Positions 42,656 to 55,288 of a stretch of 64,000 nucleotides of DNA are shown here, in pieces. The DNA comes from Candidatus Latescibacterota bacterium (GTDB lineage Bacteria; Latescibacterota; CBDEFO01). Positions within the stretch are counted from its first letter, which is position 1, and every line of letters begins with the position of its first letter. The notes below the pieces were generated by a model. That model made no database searches. It was not told where the DNA came from and saw nothing but the letters and a program-made list of their open reading frames with translations. Location: the NCBI GenBank assembly GCA_965248755.1, contig OZ252149.1, positions 1,824,001 to 1,888,000 of the forward strand, given 5' to 3'. The translations under genes were made by a program, and so were the position numbers.

Positions 42656-42955
42656 CTATCTCATCAAGATCAACTTCCTTGTCTGTACAAATCCATCCGT
42701 CTCCATCCGATACAGATAGCCTCCGCTGGCAAGACTCTTTCCGTTATTATCTTTGCCTTCCCAGACTATAGAATAACTGCCTGTATCCATCTCTCTATCT
42801 ACCAATGTCGCAACCTTCTGTCCCATTACATTATAGGCAGATATAGTAACGTGGCTTTGAACAGGAAGGTCGTAATGGATCACCGTCAGGGGGTTAAACG
42901 GATTCGGGTAGTTCTGGGGGAGACAATAGTCGTGGGCACCGCAGCAATGTCCTCT
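42656..42955 (-). pseudogene. Orphaned T9SS-type/FlgD-Ig C-terminal domain
   Basis: QNYPNPFNP...GQKVATLVD...LASGGYLYRM...RKL; no start codon or RBS of its own. Confidence 0.75.
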
Positions 42956-42957
42956 AT

Positions 42958-43905
42958 CTATTCGTTTCCGGCTATCTCTATGGATGCAATAGAGATCTCT
43001 GTTCTACTGTCAACCCCTGTTACCCAAAGACGTACGTATTCTATACGCGTCGAATCGGGCGCAGCGTTTTGGGACCTTATTGGGGGCGAATCCCACAGCG
43101 GGACCCTGAAGAGTCGCCATCCGTTGCTGTATGTGTCTTCAACCAAATATGGAGTAGTATCATCAGAAAGAGGGATAGAATAGTGATAATACGCGTTCCT
43201 TGAGTCCAAGAAGCTGTTGTTGTTTATATCTTCTGTATCGGGAATTATCCCCCTGTCCGAATCGTTCTTGCTGTCTTCTGTTCCGTTGATCTGTTCGTAG
43301 TTGTCTCTGCTGTCCGTATCCGAATCGTAGTGCCAGTTATCCCCATTGGGATCGGGATTAAGGACGGGATCGTATCCTGGCTCAGCTTCATCGGCAAGCC
43401 CGTCTATTCCAACATCTTCACCCACGTCCAGGACATTATTTCTGATCCCGGATATATCTCTGTCCTCAGTGTCCAGCCTTCCGTTAAAAATAACATCCTC
43501 AGATATATCTCCTAAATCTATGTTAAGCGTCCCTGCATCGCCCTTTACCCACACCTCTACAAACTTAGACCAGGAAAAGTCACTGCTTCCTAAGGGGAGC
43601 GCCCGCATAACCCCTCCCCAGCGCTCCTCAATCGGTCCTGATGCTGTATCTTGATAGGTAGCTTTTCCCTCAGGATCAAAATCCAACACCAGAATATCTG
43701 TTTTGTTCTCTCTGCTTGAGACCTCCTTGTTGGGCCATATCTCCCCGGTGTCCACTCTATCGAAGGGATTATACCATATCAACCTTCCTTGATTAGATTT
43801 GAAGTCCTCTATTTGCTGTGGATCATCAACTGGGGGGCTGGCCTGGGTCCATACAGATCTAGATATTCCGAAGTTCGTCATCCCTGCTATTGCTCGATTG
43901 CCCAT
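42958..43905 (-). CDS. SprA-like protein fragment (non-barrel segment)
   Basis: WTQASPP, LIWYN, WGGVMR, IDLGDISED, EDVGIDG, INGTE, PDTEDIN, GWRLFRVPL and EIAGNE motifs. Confidence 0.75.
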   Translation of the reverse strand: MGNRAIAGMTNFGISRSVWTQASPPVDDPQQIEDFKSNQGRLIWYNPFDRVDTGEIWPNKEVSSRENKTDILVLDFDPEGKATYQDTASGPIEERWGGVMRALPLGSSDFSWSKFVEVWVKGDAGTLNIDLGDISEDVIFNGRLDTEDRDISGIRNNVLDVGEDVGIDGLADEAEPGYDPVLNPDPNGDNWHYDSDTDSRDNYEQINGTEDSKNDSDRGIIPDTEDINNNSFLDSRNAYYHYSIPLSDDTTPYLVEDTYSNGWRLFRVPLWDSPPIRSQNAAPDSTRIEYVRLWVTGVDSRTEISIASIEIAGNE

Positions 43906-45034
43906 CCTGAATCTTTACCTCTACACTGTCCTGAATGTTTACCCCTATAAAGTACCTGCTGGCGTTCTGCCTTACTATCTGGTCTTGACTTTCGTATATT
44001 TGGGGGATCGTCTCCTCCAGCGGCGGTATATCAAGACCGTTATCCCTTGCCCAGTCGGGGTTTAAAGGATCAAAAGGCTGAAGGTCGGGGAATACCAATT
44101 CTCCTCTTTCGAGGTCTAGCGGGACGAAACGGAAGTTGCCTATCTGTATCTCCCCGAGATCCACAAGATTGTCAGATTGAGGATTATTATCTCTATCTTT
44201 AAGGTCTAATCCTAAAATCTTTATGTAGGGAACGCCGTTTTGCGAATCGTCCGGATCGTCCCCGGGGAGGTCCCTGAATACCCTGAGGTCGAATCCTTCG
44301 AGGGGTATCCTCCTTGCTCCAAGGTCGTAGACGTTTTTCCACTCAAGTTCCCAAGTTGTCTCCTGACCCGGGATCGGTCTTTGATTTTTTGCCTTTATCA
44401 GTTTTAATGTAAGTTCCTCGCCCAGAGTGGCATGCGTGTCCACGTCTCCAAAGGAGTCTGCCCTCTTCGTTTCGTAGGTCACAGCTACAACGTGGTAATC
44501 TCCTACGGAGCTGTTCAGAATTATGTATCCCAGCCTGGGGTCCAGGAAGTAGTCATTAGGGTCTATCTCGTGGAACTTGCCTCTGTGGAAATTCGTAGCA
44601 GTTTTTTGGAAATTGTTCGGGTTGAAGTCCTGTCCTCCATCCCAATAGTAAGCGAGTCCATCTATAGCTCTGTCCTGGGCATCGTTTTGCTGATTCTGGT
44701 CGTCTACAAAGACTCTCAAGTCGACTACCGAGTCAAGGGATTTGTATTCTTTATCCCGAAACCTATCTCTGTAGAGCAGATCCAGAAAGAAGTACTTATT
44801 CCTTACGTACTGGAAATCCCTTATAATATTTGATGATAGCTTTGAGGGCTCTGTAGGGGAATCAGAACCACATCCAGAAAGTAACGTGAGGATCAATATT
44901 GCAACAAAACTGATAACAGCATCTACAGTTACAAGGCTCTTGAGTCTACGATTCTGTCTTTCTACGTTCTTTAGTCGCTCCACTATGACCTGCAAGTGCG
45001 GCATCTGTAGTATCATAAATGTTTCTTGCCTCAT
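43859..45034 (-). CDS. Membrane-anchored or lipoprotein SprA-like fragment
   Basis: TM segment plus LSGC lipobox; IRDFQYVRNKYFFLD, LKLIK, WELEWKNVYDLG and GELVFPDLQPF motifs. Confidence 0.7.
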   Translation of the reverse strand: MRQETFMILQMPHLQVIVERLKNVERQNRRLKSLVTVDAVISFVAILILTLLSGCGSDSPTEPSKLSSNIIRDFQYVRNKYFFLDLLYRDRFRDKEYKSLDSVVDLRVFVDDQNQQNDAQDRAIDGLAYYWDGGQDFNPNNFQKTATNFHRGKFHEIDPNDYFLDPRLGYIILNSSVGDYHVVAVTYETKRADSFGDVDTHATLGEELTLKLIKAKNQRPIPGQETTWELEWKNVYDLGARRIPLEGFDLRVFRDLPGDDPDDSQNGVPYIKILGLDLKDRDNNPQSDNLVDLGEIQIGNFRFVPLDLERGELVFPDLQPFDPLNPDWARDNGLDIPPLEETIPQIYESQDQIVRQNASRYFIGVNIQDSVEVKIQDGQSSNSRDDELRNI

Positions 45035-45059: not shown

Positions 45060-45214
45060 CTACCGCATCAATACCAGCTTTCTTATTCGCACAAATCCGT
45101 CTGCTACCATACGATAGAAATAGACTCCGCTGGCAAGGCTCTCTCCGTTATGGTCTCTGCCATCCCAGGCTAGAGAAGAACGTAAGTCTCAGGAACGTCT
45201 GATGATAGTTATGC
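45060..45214 (-). pseudogene. Internally deleted CTD relic
   Basis: SSDVPETY*, then jumps to WDG...[10 protein letters not shown]...RKL. Confidence 0.7.
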
Positions 45215-46210
45215 CTACTCATTTATGGTAGCGGGGGTAGCAGAAAGATTAAACAACACTGATACAATATCGCTGCCACTATTAGCCACAGCCAGGTCAT
45301 TATCTCCATCCCCGTCTAAATCCGCACTGAATACTGAACTGGGATCATCCCCAGCGGTATAGTCCACCTTATGTGCAAATGTACCATCTCCGTTGTTCAA
45401 CAACGATGATACAGCACTGGGGAAGGTGAAGCCACTATTAGCCACAGCTATGTCGTTATCTCCATCGCCATCTAAATCTGCTATGAATACTGACGAGGGT
45501 TGCCATCCAGCGTCATAGTCCATCTTATATGCAAACGTACCGTCTCCATTATTCATCAACACTGACACAGTTTTGCCAGGATGATGAAAGCGGCCCCAAT
45601 TAGCCACAGCTAGGTCATTATCTCCATCGCCATCTAAATCCGCAATGAATACTGAACGGGGATTACGCCCAGTTTCATAGTCCACCTTATGTGCAAATGT
45701 CCCATCTCCGTTGTTCAATAACACTGATACACTGCTCCACAAAATAACCCTACTAAACTGATTAGCCACAGCTAGGTCATTATCTCCATCGCCATCTAAA
45801 TCCGCAATGAATACTGAACGGGGATTACGCCCAGTTTCATAGTCCACCTTATGTGCAAATGTCCCATCTCCGTTGTTCAATAACACTGATACGGTATTGC
45901 TGTGAAAATTAGCCACAGCCAGATCATTATCTCCATACCCATCTAAATCCGCTATAAAAACTGAACTACCCCCAGCATCATAGCTCCCGTTAGGCGTAAA
46001 TGTTCCACCCCCATCATTCAACAACACTGATACACCTATACCACTAGCCACAGCTAAGTCATTATCTCCATCTCCATCTAAATCAGCACTGAATACTGAT
46101 ACAGCGCAAACAACATAGTCAGTCCTGGGTCCGAAAAGACCCTGTGCATAGGCAGGCGAATTCAAAGTGACTAAGAGCCAGAATGCAATGAAAAAGGAGA
46201 TATTGAACAT
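45215..46210 (-). CDS. Secreted FG-GAP/VCBS repeat protein, CTD lost
   Basis: Signal peptide; ADLDGDGDNDLAVAN repeats. Confidence 0.88.
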   Translation of the reverse strand: MFNISFFIAFWLLVTLNSPAYAQGLFGPRTDYVVCAVSVFSADLDGDGDNDLAVASGIGVSVLLNDGGGTFTPNGSYDAGGSSVFIADLDGYGDNDLAVANFHSNTVSVLLNNGDGTFAHKVDYETGRNPRSVFIADLDGDGDNDLAVANQFSRVILWSSVSVLLNNGDGTFAHKVDYETGRNPRSVFIADLDGDGDNDLAVANWGRFHHPGKTVSVLMNNGDGTFAYKMDYDAGWQPSSVFIADLDGDGDNDIAVANSGFTFPSAVSSLLNNGDGTFAHKVDYTAGDDPSSVFSADLDGDGDNDLAVANSGSDIVSVLFNLSATPATINE

Positions 46211-46246
46211 AGTTCGAATCTTCTTTATTACAGGGCTACATGGGTT

Positions 46247-46400
46247 CACCGCATCAACACCAGCTTCCTTGTATGCACAAATCCATCCGTCTTCATCCGA
46301 TAGAGATAAACTCCGCTGGTAAGGCTCTTTTGATTGTCATCTTTGCCATGCCGGGCTAGAGAAGAACGTAAGTCTCAGGAACTTCTGATGATAGTTATGC
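46247..46400 (-). pseudogene. Internally deleted CTD relic
   Basis: Same lesions as 45060-45214. Confidence 0.7.
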
Positions 46401-47522
46401 CTACTCATTCATGGTAGCGGGGGTAGTGGACAGATTGATCAACACTGATACATTATCGCTCCAATAATTAGCCACAGCCAAGTCATTATCTCCATCTCCA
46501 TCTAAATCTGCACTGAATACTGATATGGGGCCATCCCCAGCGGTATAGTCCACCTTGGGTGCGAATATTCCATCTCCGTTGTTCAACAATATAGACACAA
46601 CATCAGGGCTGTTAAGATTAGCGACAGCCAGATCATTGTCACCATCTCCATCTAAATCAGCACTGAATACTGAATAGGGATCAACCCGAACAGTATAGTC
46701 CACTTTAGGTGCAAATGTACCGATCCCGTAATTCAACAACACTGAGACATTATTACCACCCCTATTTGCCACAGCCATATCGTTATCTCCGTCTCCATCT
46801 AGATCCACACTGAATACTGAATAGGGACCAACAGTATCATAGTCTACTTTAGGTGCAAATGTACCATTCCCGTTATTCAATAACACTGATACAGTATTGC
46901 TGTTAGAATTAGCCACAGCCAAGTCCTTGTCTCCATCTCCATCCAAATCTCCACAGAACACTGATGCGGAACCAGACCCAGCAGGATAGTCCACTTTAGG
47001 TGCAAATGTACCATTTCCCTTATTCAACAACACTGATACATTATTGCTGTTAAAATTAGCTACAGCCAAGTCCTTGTCTCCATCTAAATCTAAATCAGCA
47101 ATGAAGACTGACCAAGGATGCATGGCAGTGACATAGTCCACCTTGGGTGCGAATGTTCCATTTCCGTTGTTCATCAACACTGACACAGTATGGCTGTGAG
47201 CGTTAGCCACAGCCAAGTCATTATCTCCATCTCCATCTAAATCTGCACTGAATACTGAACTGGGAACAAGCCCAACACCATAGTTCACCTTATCCACAAA
47301 TGTCCCATCTCCATTATTTAACAACACTGATACATCATTGCTGCCACCATTAGCCACAGCTAAGTCATTGTCCCTATCTCCATCTAAGTCCGCAATGAAA
47401 ACGGATTCGGGACTATCCCCGGTAGGATAGCTGGTCGGAGACCCGAAAAGATCCTGTGCATAGCCAGACGTATTCAAAGTGACCAGCAGTGTCAGAACAG
47501 CGGATGAAATTATATGCGTCAT
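46401..47522 (-). CDS. Secreted FG-GAP/VCBS repeat protein, CTD lost
   Basis: Signal peptide ending YAQDLF; seven DLDGDGD repeats. Confidence 0.88.
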   Translation of the reverse strand: MTHIISSAVLTLLVTLNTSGYAQDLFGSPTSYPTGDSPESVFIADLDGDRDNDLAVANGGSNDVSVLLNNGDGTFVDKVNYGVGLVPSSVFSADLDGDGDNDLAVANAHSHTVSVLMNNGNGTFAPKVDYVTAMHPWSVFIADLDLDGDKDLAVANFNSNNVSVLLNKGNGTFAPKVDYPAGSGSASVFCGDLDGDGDKDLAVANSNSNTVSVLLNNGNGTFAPKVDYDTVGPYSVFSVDLDGDGDNDMAVANRGGNNVSVLLNYGIGTFAPKVDYTVRVDPYSVFSADLDGDGDNDLAVANLNSPDVVSILLNNGDGIFAPKVDYTAGDGPISVFSADLDGDGDNDLAVANYWSDNVSVLINLSTTPATMNE

Positions 47523-48593: not shown

Positions 48594-51500
48594 CTATCTC
48601 ATCAATAACAGCTTCCTCGTCTTCACAAATCCACCCGTCTCCATCCGATAGAAATAGACTCCGCTGGCAAGGCTCTCTCCATTATTACCTTTGCCATCCC
48701 AGACTACGGAGTAGCTACCGGCTGATCTGTGACCATCCACCAATGTCGCAACCTTCTGTCCCATTAAATTGAAGATAGATATGCTAACGCGGCTTCCAAC
48801 AGGAAGATCGTAATGGATCACCGTCTCCGGGTTGAACGGATTTGGATAGTTCTGGAAGAGGGAGTATCCTGAAGGTATAGACATCTCTTCTGACTCGTCC
48901 ACAGCCGTGATCCTTTCAACCTCCCGAGTCATCAATCTCATATCGTCAAGGTAGAATGTCTCCTCCACCGCCCCAGCGATTGGGATCGACACTATGCGGC
49001 CTTCCCGGTTCGCTGGAACCTCTGAGATCGGGATAGACACCAACTGCCAGGTGTCCGGCTGTGGCACAATCCCCAGGCCGCTCAACTGCTTGCCCGCAAT
49101 AATAGGACTCTGCTCGGAAGCATTTCCCCCGTTGATGTAGAACTCCAGGTGGGTGTAGCCGAAGAAGGGATCAATCCCTCCAGGATCGTACAACAAATAT
49201 TTTATTGCCCCTAGCAACGAGATGGCGTGAGAGGCGCTGCCACTATGGACGAATTTTGAGGACGTCAGATCAGATTCGACTCTGATGGCTCTGCCAAGCT
49301 CAACCGTCCATCCAGGTTCGATCCCATCCCTGTAAATCCATAGATCATCTGAGGGAAAGAGCTCGACCTTGCTCTTTGCAAAGACCCTGCTTGAAGCGGT
49401 GTCCTCGACAGTAATTTTTAGGGTATTCTCTCTCGTAAATCCCCTGGGTACCAAACTAACCGAAGCAGTGAAGATCCCATCGCCAAAGACCTCATCCCTT
49501 CCAGTTCCGTCATCGTGCAAAGGGATTTCAACCCCACCACCTATCGGGCTTAAATCCACAGTGACTTTGACCGGACCTCCATCGTCCCTTGAAGGGGAGA
49601 CCTTTGCAGCGATGGTCATATCAGTTTCAACACCCACGTGCACATCAGGAGGAGTTACCGAAACATCACGGCTGCGGACGAGGTAAGACGGCCTTCTGAA
49701 CCTGAGGATAAAAAGTCCATCATCTCTATCGCTGACGAAGACCAGATCCCCTGAGGGGAAGGAGCTCCAGGCCCCGCTGAATAACCCTCCAGAGTAGCTG
49801 TCGCTCAGGACGTAAAAGCCGACCTCTATGGGGTCCGTCGGATCAGAGACATCAACAACTCTGAAGCCGTCTTCATGGTTCCCTATGTATACAAGGTCGC
49901 CTTCCACAAGGATATTGTGGATCGAGACCCCTTCAACGGTACGGCTAGAGCTTTTATAACTGCCGACTTCTCTGGGATCGGAAAGGTCTCTTATGTCTAT
50001 AACTCGCATGAAGGCGCCAGGATACTCATCAGTTATAAAGACGAAATCCCCATTTGCAGAGGGTTCCACACTGTGCGTAGAGGCGTCAGGATAGGTGTAA
50101 GAGCCAATCTCCCTCGGGTTTTTGGGATCTGCAACATCCAGGATTCTAAGTCCAGCCCCCCAATATGCTAAATAGGCCCTGTCTCCTGAGACAGAGACGT
50201 CATGGAGGAAGCCACTAAAATCTAGCTCAAACTGTTCTGATCTAGGTAACTCCCAGTGTCCGATCTCGAAGGGCTGCTTCGGATTGGAGATATCCACTAT
50301 CCGGAGCTCGCCAAAATTGCTGACCAGATAGACGAGATTCCCCGCTATAAAGGAGTTGTGGACGCCAAATGGAAGGTTGCTTGTATATTTGGCCAGTTCC
50401 ACGGGGTTTGACGGGTCGGAGATATCCAGGATCTGGATCCCTCTCAGGCCGGCGTCCAAAGATAAAGAAGCCTCATTAGAGACAACAGCTAAGTTGCCTG
50501 AGACCTTAACGTCCCAGATTATGACCCTCTTAGAGACATTGATCCATATGACCTCCCCAGCTTTGCCCAGAGCCAAGCCAAAAGGGCCGGCAACCACGCC
50601 GCCAGTGGCCAAGGTGGTCAGGCCTCCGGTCTCCGGATCCAGTTTAAAGATCGCTCCTGTGGTGATGCCGAGCTCTTTGGGGTCGGCGTGGAGATCTGCA
50701 ATGATGATGGAACCATCATCATCCACCGCAAGACTTACAGGAGTGTGAAGGGGTGGACCAGACCTTAAAATCCTAACCTTACCTGTAGCCGGATCGATTC
50801 TGAGAATACTTGGCCGGAAGCCAAGAAAACCGGGGTCTATGCCGATTATAGCACCACTTGCATCAAGGGCTATAGCGCCTAAATCGGAGAAGTCACCCAG
50901 AAAATCCGACTCGGCTTCAACTACGGTGGTAAATTCTCCCGTGGCCGGGTCCAGCCTTATTAGCTTTCCCCCTTCATACTCTTCTGTCACTGGATTGAAG
51001 CCATCCGAATGCGAGATGAAGACGACTCCCGAGGAATCGACGGCAACCCCGTACGGGGAAGTGATGGAGGGATCTTTTAAAAGGGGGGTTACGGTTCCGG
51101 TCTCCGGGTCCACTTTAAAAAGACCCCGCTCTTTCCCCTGGCAGAGCTTGTAACTATAAGGGCGCCGGTCTCATCAATAGTTATGCCCAGAGGATGGATC
51201 AGGGGATCTCCCTTAACTACAGTCTTTATCTCCCCGGTCTCCAGGTCGACCCGTAAAATAGCTCCTTCTTGCTCTTTTACAGAGAAGGAAAAGGAGGACC
51301 TCCTGCCAAAATCCGCCACGAAGAGGGTACCGTTTCTGTCCAGAGCCACCCCGGCAGGGAATATCAAGGGTGTTCCTGTTGCGCGGAGAACGGTTTCACC
51401 CGAAATCCGATCCAAAGTGAAGACCCCTGCTGTATAGTTCGGAAAAGCGCCGACCTCTTTGGGGTTCGCAGGATCAGAGACATCTATAACCCGGAGGCCG

Positions 51501-51844
51501 TCGAAGGAGTTACCAAGATAGACATAGTTTCCGGAGACGTAAAGGTCCGCAAACCTCTCACGAGAATCGGGTTTGTAGCTGCCCACAAGCTCCGTGTTAT
51601 TGCTGCTCACCTGCGCGACAAGAGGCTTAAAGCGTTGGCTTTCCCCATAGTTTTGGTGCATCCTCTCACGATACCGAAGGTAGTTTTTGAGGAGCTCCCG
51701 CATCTCCGATCTATCCCCGATTGAGCCCCCGATTGACTGATCCCCGATAGATTCAATCGGGGAGGGTCGGGACTCAGCAAAGCTGGCTGAAACGGCCAGC
51801 AGGAATATCAGAGGTACTGCCCAAAGAGAAGTCAACTTCAACAT
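48594..51844 (-). CDS. Secreted LVIVD-repeat/beta-propeller protein with CTD, split by a frameshift near 51115
   Basis: ORFs 51089-51844 and 48594-51113 together align to the paralog at 52067-55288; two extra T in a T-run. Confidence 0.82.
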
Positions 51845-51863: not shown

Positions 51864-52095
51864 AACAGCTTCTAATACGTTGACCCTACGTAATTACTTG
51901 CCTTTCTGCTGATGATCGTGCTCAAAAGCCCAGTCTTCAGGAGCATCTACAGTCCCTACCAAGCTGTCCAGGACTTCCCAGACACTCCACTATGACCTGT
52001 ACGTCCGGCATCTGTAGTATCATAAATGTTTCTTACGTCATCCATTTCTCTTATAGAGAAAGTATCCTACCGCAACAATAACAGCTTCCTCGTCT
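51864..52095. repeat. About 230-bp junction repeat, near-identical at about 55296-55527; partial copy at about 44980-45085
   Basis: Direct sequence comparison. Confidence 0.9.
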
Positions 52096-55000
52096 TCACA
52101 AATCCATCTCCTACCATCCGATACAAATAGACGCCGCTGGCAAGGCTCTCTCCGTTATCATCTTTCCCATCCCAGACTGCGGAGTGACTTCCCGCATCCA
52201 TCTCTCTGTCCACCAGTGTCGCTACCTTCTGTCCCATTATGTTATAGACAGATAGATCAACGTGGCTCCCATCAGGAAGTTCGTAGTAGATCACTGTCTG
52301 GGGGTTGAACGGATTGGGATAGTTTTGGGAAAGGGAATATCCTGAAGGTATAGAGATCTCTTCTGACTCGTCCACATCCGTGCTGATCTCTTCAATCTCC
52401 CGAGTCACCAACCTCATATCGTCAAGGTAGAATGTCTCCTCCACCGCCCCGGCGATTGGGATCGACACTATGCGGCCTTCCCGGTTCGCTGGAACCTCTG
52501 AGATCGGGATAGACACCAACTGCCAGGTGTCCGGCTGTGGCACAATCCCCAAGCCGCTCAACTGCTTGCCCGCAATAATAGGATTCTGCCCCGAAGCATC
52601 TCCCCCGTTGATGTAGAACTCCAGGTGGGTGTAGACGAAGAAGGGATCAATCCCTCCAGGATCGTCCAACAAATATTTTATTGCCCCTAGCAACGAGATG
52701 GCGTGTGAGGCGCTGCCACTATGGACGAATTTTGAGGACGTCAGATCAGAATCGACTCTGATGGCTCTGACGAGCTCAATCGTCCATCCAGGTTCGATCC
52801 CATCCCTGTAAATCCAGAGATCTTCTGAAGGAATGAGCTCGACCTTGCTCCTGGCAAAGACCCTGCCTGAAGCAGTGTCCTCAACAGTAATTTTTAGGGT
52901 GTTCTCTCTCGTAAGGACACTGGGTACCAAACTAACCGACGCAGTGAATATCCCATCGCCAAAGAACTCATCCCCTCCAGTTCCGTGATCGTCCATAGGG
53001 ATTTCAGCCCCACTGCCTATCGGGCTTAAATCCACAGTGACTTTGACCGGACCTCCACCGTCTCGTGAAGGGGAGACCTTTGCAGTGATGGTCATATCAG
53101 TTTCAATACCCGAGTGCACCTTAGGAGGGGTCACCGAAACATCACGGCTGCGGACAAGGTAGGACGGCCTTCTGAACCTGAGGATAAAAAGTCCATGATC
53201 TGTATCGCTTACGAAGACCAGACCCTTTGAGGGGAAGGAAGTAAAGGCTCCGTTTAATAACCCTCGGGAGTAGCTCTGGCTTCGGATGTAAAAGCCGACC
53301 TCTACAGGGTCCGTCGGATCAGAGACATCAACAACCCTGAAGCCGTCCTGATAGTACCCTATGTATACAAGGTCGCCTTCCACAAGGATATTGTGGATCG
53401 AGACCTCTTGATTCCCAACAACGATACGGTTGGAGCTTTTATAACTGCCGACTTCTCTGGGACTGGAAAGGTCCCTTATGTCTATAACCCGCAAAAAGCC
53501 GCCGGGCTGCTCATCGGTTATATAAACGAAATCCCCATTTGCGGAGGGTTCCCCACTGTGCGTAGAGGCGTCGGGATAGGTGTAAGCGCTGATCTCCCTT
53601 GGGTTTTCGGGATCTGCGACATCCAGGATCCTGAGTCCGGCCTCCATATAGGCTAAATAGGCTCTGTTTCCTGAGACAGAGACATCGTGGAGATGGTTGA
53701 ACCTAAAACCTCGCTCAGGGTATTCTGATATGGGCAATTCCCAGTGTGCTATCTCGAAGGGCTGCCACGGATCAGATATATCTACTATCCGGAGGCCTTC
53801 AAAATCGCTGACCAGATAGACGAGACTCCCATCTATAAACGAATTGTGGACGCCGAATGTAAGGTTGCTTGTATACTTGACCAGTTCCACAGGGTTTGAC
53901 GGATCGGAGACGTCCAGGATCTGGATCCCTCCCAGGTCAGCATCCAAAAAGTCAGGGAATGGAGGGACCTCATTGGATACAACGGCTAAGTTTCCTGAGA
54001 CCTTAACGTCCAATATACGGACCCTCTTAGAGATATTGGTCCACATGACCTCCCCAGCTTTGCCGAGAGCCAATCCGAACGGGCCTGTAACCAAACCGCC
54101 AGTAGCTAAGGTGGTCAGACTTCCAGTCTCCGGATCCAGTTTAAAGATCGCTCCTGTGGTGATTCCAAGCCCTTTAGGGTCAGCGTTGGAATCGGCAATG
54201 AGGATGGAACCGTCCTCAGCCACCGCAAGATTTACAGGAGTGCGGAAGGGCGGACCAGACGCTAAAATCCGAACCTCACCTGTATCTGGATCGATCCTGA
54301 GTATCTTTGGCTGGAGACCGAATGCTAAAGAACCAGGGTCTATGGCGATTACAGCACCACTTGAATCAAGGCCTATAGCGCCTAAAGAGATAAAGGAGTC
54401 CAGAGAATCCAGCTCAGCTTTAACTACGGTGATAAATTCTCCTGTGGCAGGGTCCAGCCTTATCAGCTTTCCCCCTTCGAACTCCCCTGTCACTGGATTA
54501 AAGTGAGCCAGATTCGAGATGAAGACATCTCCCAAGTGATCGATGGCAACCCCGTACGGAAAGGTAATGGAGGGATCCCTTAAGAGTGGTATTACAGTTC
54601 CAGTATCCGGGTCCACTTTAAAGACCCCACTTTTTTCCCCAGCAGAACTTGTAACTATAAGGGCACCAGTCTCATCAATGGCTATACTCAAAGGACGGAG
54701 CAGCAAGGAGTCCCCTTTAATTACGGTTTTTGCCTCCCCGGTCCCCATATTGATCCTTAAGATAGCCCCCTCTTCCCCTCTTGAGGACGTGCCGAAGTCT
54801 GCCACAAAGAGAGTGTCGAAGGCGGCCAGGGCTGCCCCGGCAGGGAATATGAAGGGTGCCCCTGTTGCACGGAGAACGGTTTCACCAGAAGTCTGATCCA
54901 AAGTGAAAACCCCTACTGTATAGTTTGGAAAAGTGCCAACCTCCTCGGGATTCGCAGGATCAGAAACATCAATTACTCGTAGCCCGTCAAAGAAGTTACC

Positions 55001-55288
55001 GAGGTAGACATAGTTCCCAGATACGTAAAGGTCTGTGAATATCTCATGAGAATCGGGTCTATAGCTCCCCACAAGCTCCGCGTTATTGCTGCTCACCTCC
55101 GCGACAACAGGCTTAAAGCGTTGGCTTTCAGCATAGTTTCGGTTTATCCTCTCATGATACCGAAAGTAGTTTTTCAGGATCTTCCACCTCTGGAATCTGT
55201 CTGTATCGGCAAAGCTGGTTGAAAATGCCAGCAGGAATATCAGAGGAACTGCCCAAAGAGAATTCAACTTCAATATTGAAGGTCTCAT
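52067..55288 (-). CDS. Secreted LVIVD-repeat/beta-propeller protein with CTD
   Basis: Signal peptide; [10 protein letters not shown] repeats; [12 protein letters not shown]. Confidence 0.88.
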   Translation of the reverse strand: MRPSILKLNSLWAVPLIFLLAFSTSFADTDRFQRWKILKNYFRYHERINRNYAESQRFKPVVAEVSSNNAELVGSYRPDSHEIFTDLYVSGNYVYLGNFFDGLRVIDVSDPANPEEVGTFPNYTVGVFTLDQTSGETVLRATGAPFIFPAGAALAAFDTLFVADFGTSSRGEEGAILRINMGTGEAKTVIKGDSLLLRPLSIAIDETGALIVTSSAGEKSGVFKVDPDTGTVIPLLRDPSITFPYGVAIDHLGDVFISNLAHFNPVTGEFEGGKLIRLDPATGEFITVVKAELDSLDSFISLGAIGLDSSGAVIAIDPGSLAFGLQPKILRIDPDTGEVRILASGPPFRTPVNLAVAEDGSILIADSNADPKGLGITTGAIFKLDPETGSLTTLATGGLVTGPFGLALGKAGEVMWTNISKRVRILDVKVSGNLAVVSNEVPPFPDFLDADLGGIQILDVSDPSNPVELVKYTSNLTFGVHNSFIDGSLVYLVSDFEGLRIVDISDPWQPFEIAHWELPISEYPERGFRFNHLHDVSVSGNRAYLAYMEAGLRILDVADPENPREISAYTYPDASTHSGEPSANGDFVYITDEQPGGFLRVIDIRDLSSPREVGSYKSSNRIVVGNQEVSIHNILVEGDLVYIGYYQDGFRVVDVSDPTDPVEVGFYIRSQSYSRGLLNGAFTSFPSKGLVFVSDTDHGLFILRFRRPSYLVRSRDVSVTPPKVHSGIETDMTITAKVSPSRDGGGPVKVTVDLSPIGSGAEIPMDDHGTGGDEFFGDGIFTASVSLVPSVLTRENTLKITVEDTASGRVFARSKVELIPSEDLWIYRDGIEPGWTIELVRAIRVDSDLTSSKFVHSGSASHAISLLGAIKYLLDDPGGIDPFFVYTHLEFYINGGDASGQNPIIAGKQLSGLGIVPQPDTWQLVSIPISEVPANREGRIVSIPIAGAVEETFYLDDMRLVTREIEEISTDVDESEEISIPSGYSLSQNYPNPFNPQTVIYYELPDGSHVDLSVYNIMGQKVATLVDREMDAGSHSAVWDGKDDNGESLASGVYLYRMVGDGFVKTRKLLLLR

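Follow-up and report, generated by a model that had tools for sequence, protein, structure and literature searches.

Two cap domains of SprA in an apparently young, partly broken, barrel-less copy in a Candidatus Latescibacterota genome

Results

Layout of the locus

The DNA analyzed here, called the window, is a stretch of 64,000 nt of contig OZ252149.1 from Candidatus Latescibacterota; the host genome (G000) is one 4.54-Mb contig, G001 is its congener, and other P, G, and L numbers denote proteins, genomes, and loci of the comparison set. Two SprA-like open reading frames that overlap by 47 nt are found in it, with a detached CTD cassette behind them.

43859-45034, minus strand: ORF391 (391 aa), SprA-like, lipoprotein-A
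44825..45034, minus strand: ORF391 leader, from the sequence a charged segment, a hydrophobic run, an LSGC lipobox (Cys55), and a DSPTEPS linker
43928..44824, minus strand: cap domain A, complete and in the same frame as the leader (own sprA 304-602; F. johnsoniae SprA 281-684)
43859..43927, minus strand: A/B junction by comparison with sprA, with the last strand of A repeated and joined to the start of B through QSS-N-SR, followed by 7 codons out of frame up to the ORF391 stop
42958-43905, minus strand: ORF315 (315 aa), SprA-like, domain B
42961..43878, minus strand: cap domain B, inside ORF315 (own sprA 782-1104; SprA 858-1263)
43211..43428, minus strand: 218-nt tract identical to own sprA (nucleotide comparison)
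42960-43062, minus strand: second tract identical to own sprA, 103 nt (nucleotide comparison)
42958..42960, minus strand: TAG, the end of ORF315 at a domain edge; TGG in intact sprA
42656..42957, minus strand: detached CTD cassette, with an IEDIAAVP linker that lacks one base at ~42931-42933, followed by a type-A-like CTD without damage (FlgD_ig E 8e-9, TIGR04183 E 3e-5)

The likely start of ORF391 is Met7 (45016). A sequence-only reading of the locus had noted a TM segment and an LSGC lipobox in this ORF, and indeed the lipobox lies at residues 52 to 55 after a hydrophobic run, from which a bacterial lipoprotein with an unusually long n-region is predicted. The source of the leader is not sprA: residues 2 to 48 match leaders of genes elsewhere in G000 and G001, including that of a further lipoprotein, making it a stock piece common to other genes of the genus. 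Taken alone, ORF391 makes up a full lipoprotein-A gene, to which a tail of 22 residues is attached. ORF315 has neither a signal peptide nor a hydrophobic segment at its start, and the idea that this start was copied from that of sprA (both read MGNR) was dropped since the DNA differs and the ORF391 frame accounts for MGNR.

The sequence also confirms what that reading had described at the end of the second ORF: after GNE-TAG, the in-frame readthrough is IEDIAAVPT, and a 1-nt shift gives [14 protein letters not shown]...RKLILMR and the CTD. The TAG and the one-base shift thus leave ORF315 without a CTD in frame at its C terminus, and the CTD-bearing chain has no export signal. A single well-conserved column is changed in the cassette, whose score falls within the top quarter of those of intact CTDs, and no decay of the CTD was apparent from this scoring. 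Elsewhere in G000, there are 21 detached CTD frames (20 loci) versus 93 intact ones. Some detached cassettes lie behind metabolic-enzyme-like genes or gene fragments, labelled by eye (G000 2299263, 375567, 1980943, and 3091606), which suggests that the CTD moves as a cassette.

The neighbors of the copy in the array are FG-GAP, LVIVD, and NHL cargo genes. One LVIVD/NHL gene (window 48594-51844) is split into overlapping frames of 251 and 839 aa, and its neighbor (52067-55288) is whole. FG-GAP genes ending in ...ATPAT[IM]NE-stop each precede one and the same CTD remnant with an internal deletion (window 45060-45215 and 46246-46401, and G000 1290903 and 1515122 as well), pointing to a broken tail that was copied as a unit. 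Promoter and terminator signals at the locus were at chance level only, and Rfam gave no match there.

Identity and fold of A and B

Both ORFs match the SprA profile TIGR04189 with the order kept, ORF391 at profile positions 375 to 543 (E 3.8e-19) and ORF315 at 846 to 1193 (E 3.3e-29), but their scores of 67.5 and 100.9 bits miss the cut-off of 200, which the full gene of G000 passes. Relative to that 2013-aa gene, residues 1-303, 603-781, and 1105-2013 are missing from the copy, and it lacks any barrel strands, compared with the 36-strand barrel and length of ~2000 aa or more of an SprA/Sov translocon. The profile search and the comparison with the host's own sprA therefore bear out the earlier description of two overlapping ORFs (391 and 315 aa) with ordered SprA-like blocks and no barrel stretches. 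Nucleotide identity to own sprA is 90% without gaps for A and 87% for B, where the internal gaps are all multiples of 3.

By sequence, ORF315 matches 6H3J/6H3I, and ORF391 does so by fold only; the AlphaFold models align end to end with 6H3I, A with residues 281-684 and B with 858-1263, so that sequence and fold together place homologous SprA cap domains in both ORFs. Domain A (AF2 pLDDT 89) matches only SprA by fold (6H3I, Z 15.0, rmsd 3.4, 279 aligned; next match Z 5.3). Domain B (AF2 pLDDT 72) gave Z scores of 19.7 to 6H3I, 13.0 to 7ZKQ, and 12.2 to CBM11 1V0A (rmsd 3.2, 156 aligned) and thus has the fold of a CBM11-like module; it is modeled as a CBM11/CIA30-like beta-sandwich with an acidic insertion, and a Pfam scan of B returned no CBM match. 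None of the 32 residues conserved in long and short forms, mostly acidic residues, Gly, and Trp, is changed in B of the copy. A predicted A-B complex scored 0.01, a value read neither for nor against pairing of the two domains.

According to the accessible text of PMC9127263, the SprA cap consists of two inserts, between strands 7-8 and 11-12, with two domains each, and A and B belong to this extracellular cap. They appear to fit as the first domain of each insert, with cuts that follow domain edges, and we read the missing middle as the second domain of insert 1 plus four strand-like stretches.

Stop and frameshifts

Intact sprA reads GAA TGG where the copy has GNE-TAG, in agreement with the earlier remark that TAG is one change from TGG. 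Compared with an in-frame A-B join, we infer that the GGG run at 43882-43884 is one G too long. Logan contigs of runs X1 and X2, which represent one sample that is possibly the source of the assembly itself and whose library type is not on record, showed 0 differences to the window across the +1 site (records 4 and 12) and the -1 site (records 1 and 9). An assembly error was rejected on this agreement between the contigs of two runs from one sample. At the level of these contigs, the proposed check of the breaks could be carried through for both frameshift sites; the TAG lies inside records 1 and 9 at ~30 letters from their end, short of the bridging rule of 31 letters.

All three breaks are at domain junctions, in linkers, which account for 93 of 2358 bases, and A, B, and the CTD are clean, which points to junction scars or to splits tolerated by selection. 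An in-frame ancestry of A-B-CTD would be the parsimonious reading of the sequence. The G[DN]E-stop end point also occurs in P0012 and P0116.

The host sprA and the history of the copy

G000 carries an intact 2013-aa sprA at 4145575-4151679, the separate full-length gene that the sequence-only reading had suggested looking for; with this gene 2.3 Mb away, we discarded a split sprA as an explanation of the locus. The T9SS genes of G000 comprise sprA, porU, and PorV-family genes (seven matches over the cut-off; 15 PorV-like matches), so translocon, PorV, and PorU are all represented. A whole-genome search gave no GldM match in G000, with the control search silent too, and the motor of the T9SS may be absent or divergent.

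At the syntenic site, the congener G001 shares the flanks and lacks the copy. Conservation of the copy in the genus was rejected on this ground, and runs X5 and X7 (other studies) showed only full sprA contigs among the pieces listed. At L021 (G001:C8 ~1476050-1476760), a 719-base insert lies between the oxidoreductase gene and a CTD stub; runs X2 and X7 show a join in which 719 letters likewise separate these places, and their samples may thus contain a relative resembling G001.

The 218-nt run identical to own sprA is longer than expected by permutation (p=2e-4) and is likely the product of recent gene conversion, judging from the sequence. The copy, the G000 sprA, and the G001 sprA are mosaic in both A and B (p=2e-4 each). 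Conversion tracts, which may have passed in either direction, are thus common to the copy and the expressed gene, as in a silent conversion cassette; in place of several unexpressed donor copies, however, there is one copy, and its A has a leader. Changes private to the copy are 38 silent and 26 replacing (dN/dS ratio ~0.18), and since the segments are mosaic this low value may be inherited from donor sprA alleles. Between the G000 and G001 sprA genes, A and B are the most variable parts, with a 10% nucleotide difference versus 3-5% elsewhere; amino acid changes are enriched in A and B over the rest of the gene (OR 2.8, p=3e-8), and silent divergence is raised as well (OR 1.7, p=0.001). Many partial duplicates are found elsewhere in G000. 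By these comparisons, two cap domains of the host's own SprA were evidently copied to the locus not long ago, and the copy is now broken in part.

Recurrence in other genomes

Protein searches found short forms of five kinds: 30 lipoprotein-B, 4 lipoprotein-B-A, 2 lipoprotein-B-C, 16 signal-B-CTD, and 2 lipoprotein-A. These counts were sorted by eye, include some partial sequences, come in one search from the best 150 of 1955 matches, and exclude any sequence of 800-1700 aa as well as ten fragments of <800 aa that did not amount to complete short forms. Word-index searches with A gave 4 proteins, and genome scans yielded more; an atlas search gave SprA_N clusters only. The intact signal-B-CTD proteins are among the similar architectures that the sequence-only reading had asked after. 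No short copies were carried by the phages or viral contigs searched.

In the phylum of the Zixibacteria record, short B was found in 8/131 genomes and short A in 13/131, 18/131 in all, each with a long sprA. The phylum of the Eisenbacteria record, scanned for B only, had short B in 8/151 genomes, again alongside intact sprA and with a CTD in 7 of them, and some of these genes were frameshifted or cut by contig ends. In the phylum of the window, a short copy was found in 1/168 genomes, G000 itself, among all but 17 of the matches and with G008, G030, G002, and G085 left aside. Second matches in G010, G071, and G131 proved to be contig-end splits, and those in G054, G055, and G059 were the starts of another long sprA-like gene instead of short copies. 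The latter (L044, L042, and L043) are on short contigs in three genomes of one genus and represent a second, divergent sprA-like gene start, either a paralog or a contaminant.

Among the homologs, lipoprotein forms have no CTD, and CTD forms have plain signal peptides. In 16/17 lipoprotein-A genes, a Cys lies 17-29 residues before the R/K/H-D motif. Lipoprotein-B-C and lipoprotein-A are in tandem in G406, A and B genes adjoin in G406 and G327, and in G441 lipoprotein-B directly follows sprA. The B-A order was seen five times among the homologs and the A-B order in none of them, and two separate ancestral genes for A and B at the locus are possible. Two genomes, G342 (L095) and G392 (L091/L092), have two lipoprotein-A genes each, that differ in age, with 38-41% and 67-69% identity to own sprA. 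In G194, one gene (L087:152-3862 and L088:1107-4931 being the two loci) joins the start of sprA through B to a CTD, and the other joins a signal peptide to sprA from B to the end; with B copies that are 72% identical, the pair looks like a reciprocal crossover of sprA with a signal-B-CTD gene, or a misassembly.

Short copies track the sprA of their own host

The best match of short B was the genome's own sprA in 16/16 genomes (among 117 long sequences), and that of short A in 12/14 (among 127), with one tie and one second place. In a 33-row tree, from a quick LG+G4 search with G251 and G169 left out, each short copy pairs with its own sprA (13/15 pairs starred), and a single clade of short copies was rejected (p-AU 6.8e-44). 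A 154-row tree needed 22 changes between long and short, at least 15 of them forced by starred branches; 15 CTD forms group together there, with few own-genome partners present, and these CTD forms may have had one origin followed by overwriting. The pairing and the rejected clade indicate that the short copies are not a family of their own but the likely outcome of repeated birth or repeated overwriting, either of which fits the data.

The older copies have open frames, signals, and 38-73% amino acid identity, and 26-58% of the codons for identical residues are silently changed. Near-saturated silent sites together with intact frames and conserved cores indicate that these copies are kept by selection as proteins. 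In 16 other genomes, the longest tract identical to own sprA is 12-41 nt.

Discussion

We are nearly certain of the anatomy and the recurrence of barrel-less copies. The parts are known, and the arrangement appears undescribed: no description of stand-alone SprA cap domains was found in the openly searchable literature, which included the accessible text of PMC12398890 and PMC7463736. Three proposals of the sequence-only reading need amendment or withdrawal. That non-barrel domains were excised stands insofar as SprA cap domains were cut at domain edges, and the alignment of both ORFs to SprA that it had called for shows the breakpoints there, but only the first domain of each insert was taken and not all non-barrel domains. 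A single protein with both a lipid anchor and a CTD tag finds no support, since 0/93 CTD-ending frames of G000 have a lipobox by a crude pattern and lipoprotein homologs go without the CTD. Decay is right to the extent that the locus is partly broken and is otherwise too simple, ORF391 being a complete gene of a recurring type and the end point of ORF315 being shared with other proteins.

A and B align by sequence and fold to the SprA/Sov translocon (TIGR04189, PF14349; PDB 6H3I, 6H3J, and 8GL8), but without the barrel strands, the N terminus, and the second cap domains, the 391 and 315 aa, compared to ~2000, cannot form a pore, and short forms add a lipoprotein leader or a CTD. The type-A-like CTD behind B, the sprA, PorV-family, and porU genes of the host, and the intact signal-B-CTD proteins of other genomes recall T9SS type A cargo (TIGR04183/FlgD_ig CTD), in contrast to which a stop and a frameshift sever the CTD here, B lacks a signal, and the passenger itself comes from the secretion machine. 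The fold of B resembles CBM11/CBM30 and CIA30 (NDUFAF1) beta-sandwiches (Z 11.5-13.0), although with 9-15% identity, a large acidic insertion, and no known ligand. The extra copies of a surface target resemble the phage decoys formed by outer membrane vesicles, as far as accessible sources describe them, except that the present gene is a dedicated one and encodes nothing of the target but its outer domain. In the silent-cassette antigenic variation of pilS/pilE, conversion also takes place between copies and an expressed gene, but the present one or two copies have export signals and form no array of silent cassettes.

We tentatively propose that the copy at the locus served for surface display as a decoy for phages or attackers that bind the SprA pore. 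Part of sprA would have been copied behind a stock lipoprotein leader, the stretch with barrel strands 8-11 lost through a short SS/SSR match, and a CTD cassette added downstream of B; the gene would then have been split by the insertion of one base, leaving lipoprotein-A still expressible and B without an export signal. The displayed cap domains would sit on the cell surface and bind phages or attackers in place of the pore. Short copies match the pore of their own host, as a mimic must and an independent adhesin need not, and A and B are the most variable sprA parts between G000 and G001. The older copies are selected as proteins, and the distribution is patchy with several copies broken, as in an arms race. 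The place of both domains in the extracellular cap (PMC9127263, accessible text) and the sprA mutants among phage-resistant Flavobacterium isolates (PMC9804748, accessible text) fit the same proposal.

Several points speak against it. The same accessible text of PMC9804748 allows that the phage receptor may be T9SS cargo rather than the pore. At 38-73% identity to the host pore, the older copies are a loose mimic, and the lipoprotein forms may face the periplasm. We know of no phage or predator of these hosts and of no surface export of lipoproteins in these phyla. No defense cluster was found among 51 of 77 neighbors scanned, the neighboring genes being mostly housekeeping; the low dN/dS may come from donor alleles, and the A-B order is absent from homologs. 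Still, a decoy seems to us the best, if provisional, fit to host-matched, patchy, and often-broken copies of the most variable exposed domains. Somewhat more speculatively, many FCB-related phyla may repeatedly mint barrel-less cap-domain genes from their own sprA as self-derived receptor decoys, renewed by re-copying or gene conversion, with the locus as the most recent case among those found, in which DNA still passes between the copy and its parent gene.

Other readings of the same observations are less probable. The domains might be stable folds, with probable calcium binding, that were put to new use as adhesins or glycan binders in the manner of other CTD cargo of the array, and the CBM11/CBM30-like fold of B with its invariant acidic motifs, the FG-GAP, LVIVD, and NHL company, and the signal-B-CTD forms agree with this; we consider it unlikely, because adhesins that bind a ligand of their own would be expected to descend as one family instead of pairing with the sprA of each host, and because the fold of B is common and says nothing on function while A has no such fold. 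Host-matched sequence would equally suit free domains that dock on their own translocon and aid folding, sealing, or regulation, as would the short gene right behind sprA in G441 and the adjacent A and B genes of G406 and G327. Cargo CTDs contact the SprA cap, with no residues named (Lauber 2024, PMC10994853, accessible text), making a cargo-binding role for the cap domains possible. Such an accessory would nevertheless be dispensable, as no copy was found in 113/131, 143/151, and 167/168 genomes searched, and most copies are far from sprA, which makes docking improbable in our view.

The mosaic ancestry of the copy and the G000 and G001 alleles, the 218-nt tract, the raised silent divergence in A and B, the crossover-like pair of G194, and breaks that spare the domains could instead mean that variant cap sequence passes from the copy into sprA by gene conversion, with any protein secondary. 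That the identical tracts in 16 other genomes are so short, that homologs have export signals, and that the G001 cap is equally variable without a copy, with conversion possible in either direction, leaves an allele reservoir very improbable. It is just as doubtful that leader and CTD cassettes of plastic genomes captured the domains at random and that the copy is debris. The detached CTD frames and partial duplicates of G000 and the empty syntenic site of G001 would agree with debris, and for ORF315 and the CTD today it may well hold; for the family, it is already disfavored by cuts that recur at the same residues in many lineages (the Cys position in lipoprotein-A genes) and by long-term purifying selection in older copies.

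The copies described here also account for short proteins labelled "SprA" in databases (P0003, P0009, and P0063). The naturally occurring short forms (300-450 aa) offer, in soluble form, two domains of a membrane protein of 2000 aa, which makes the question of binding directly testable. The repeated release of cap domains, with the same cut points and matched to the host, suggests an outside binder of the SprA cap, and if the copies are decoys, they would represent an anti-phage strategy that defense-gene catalogues would miss.
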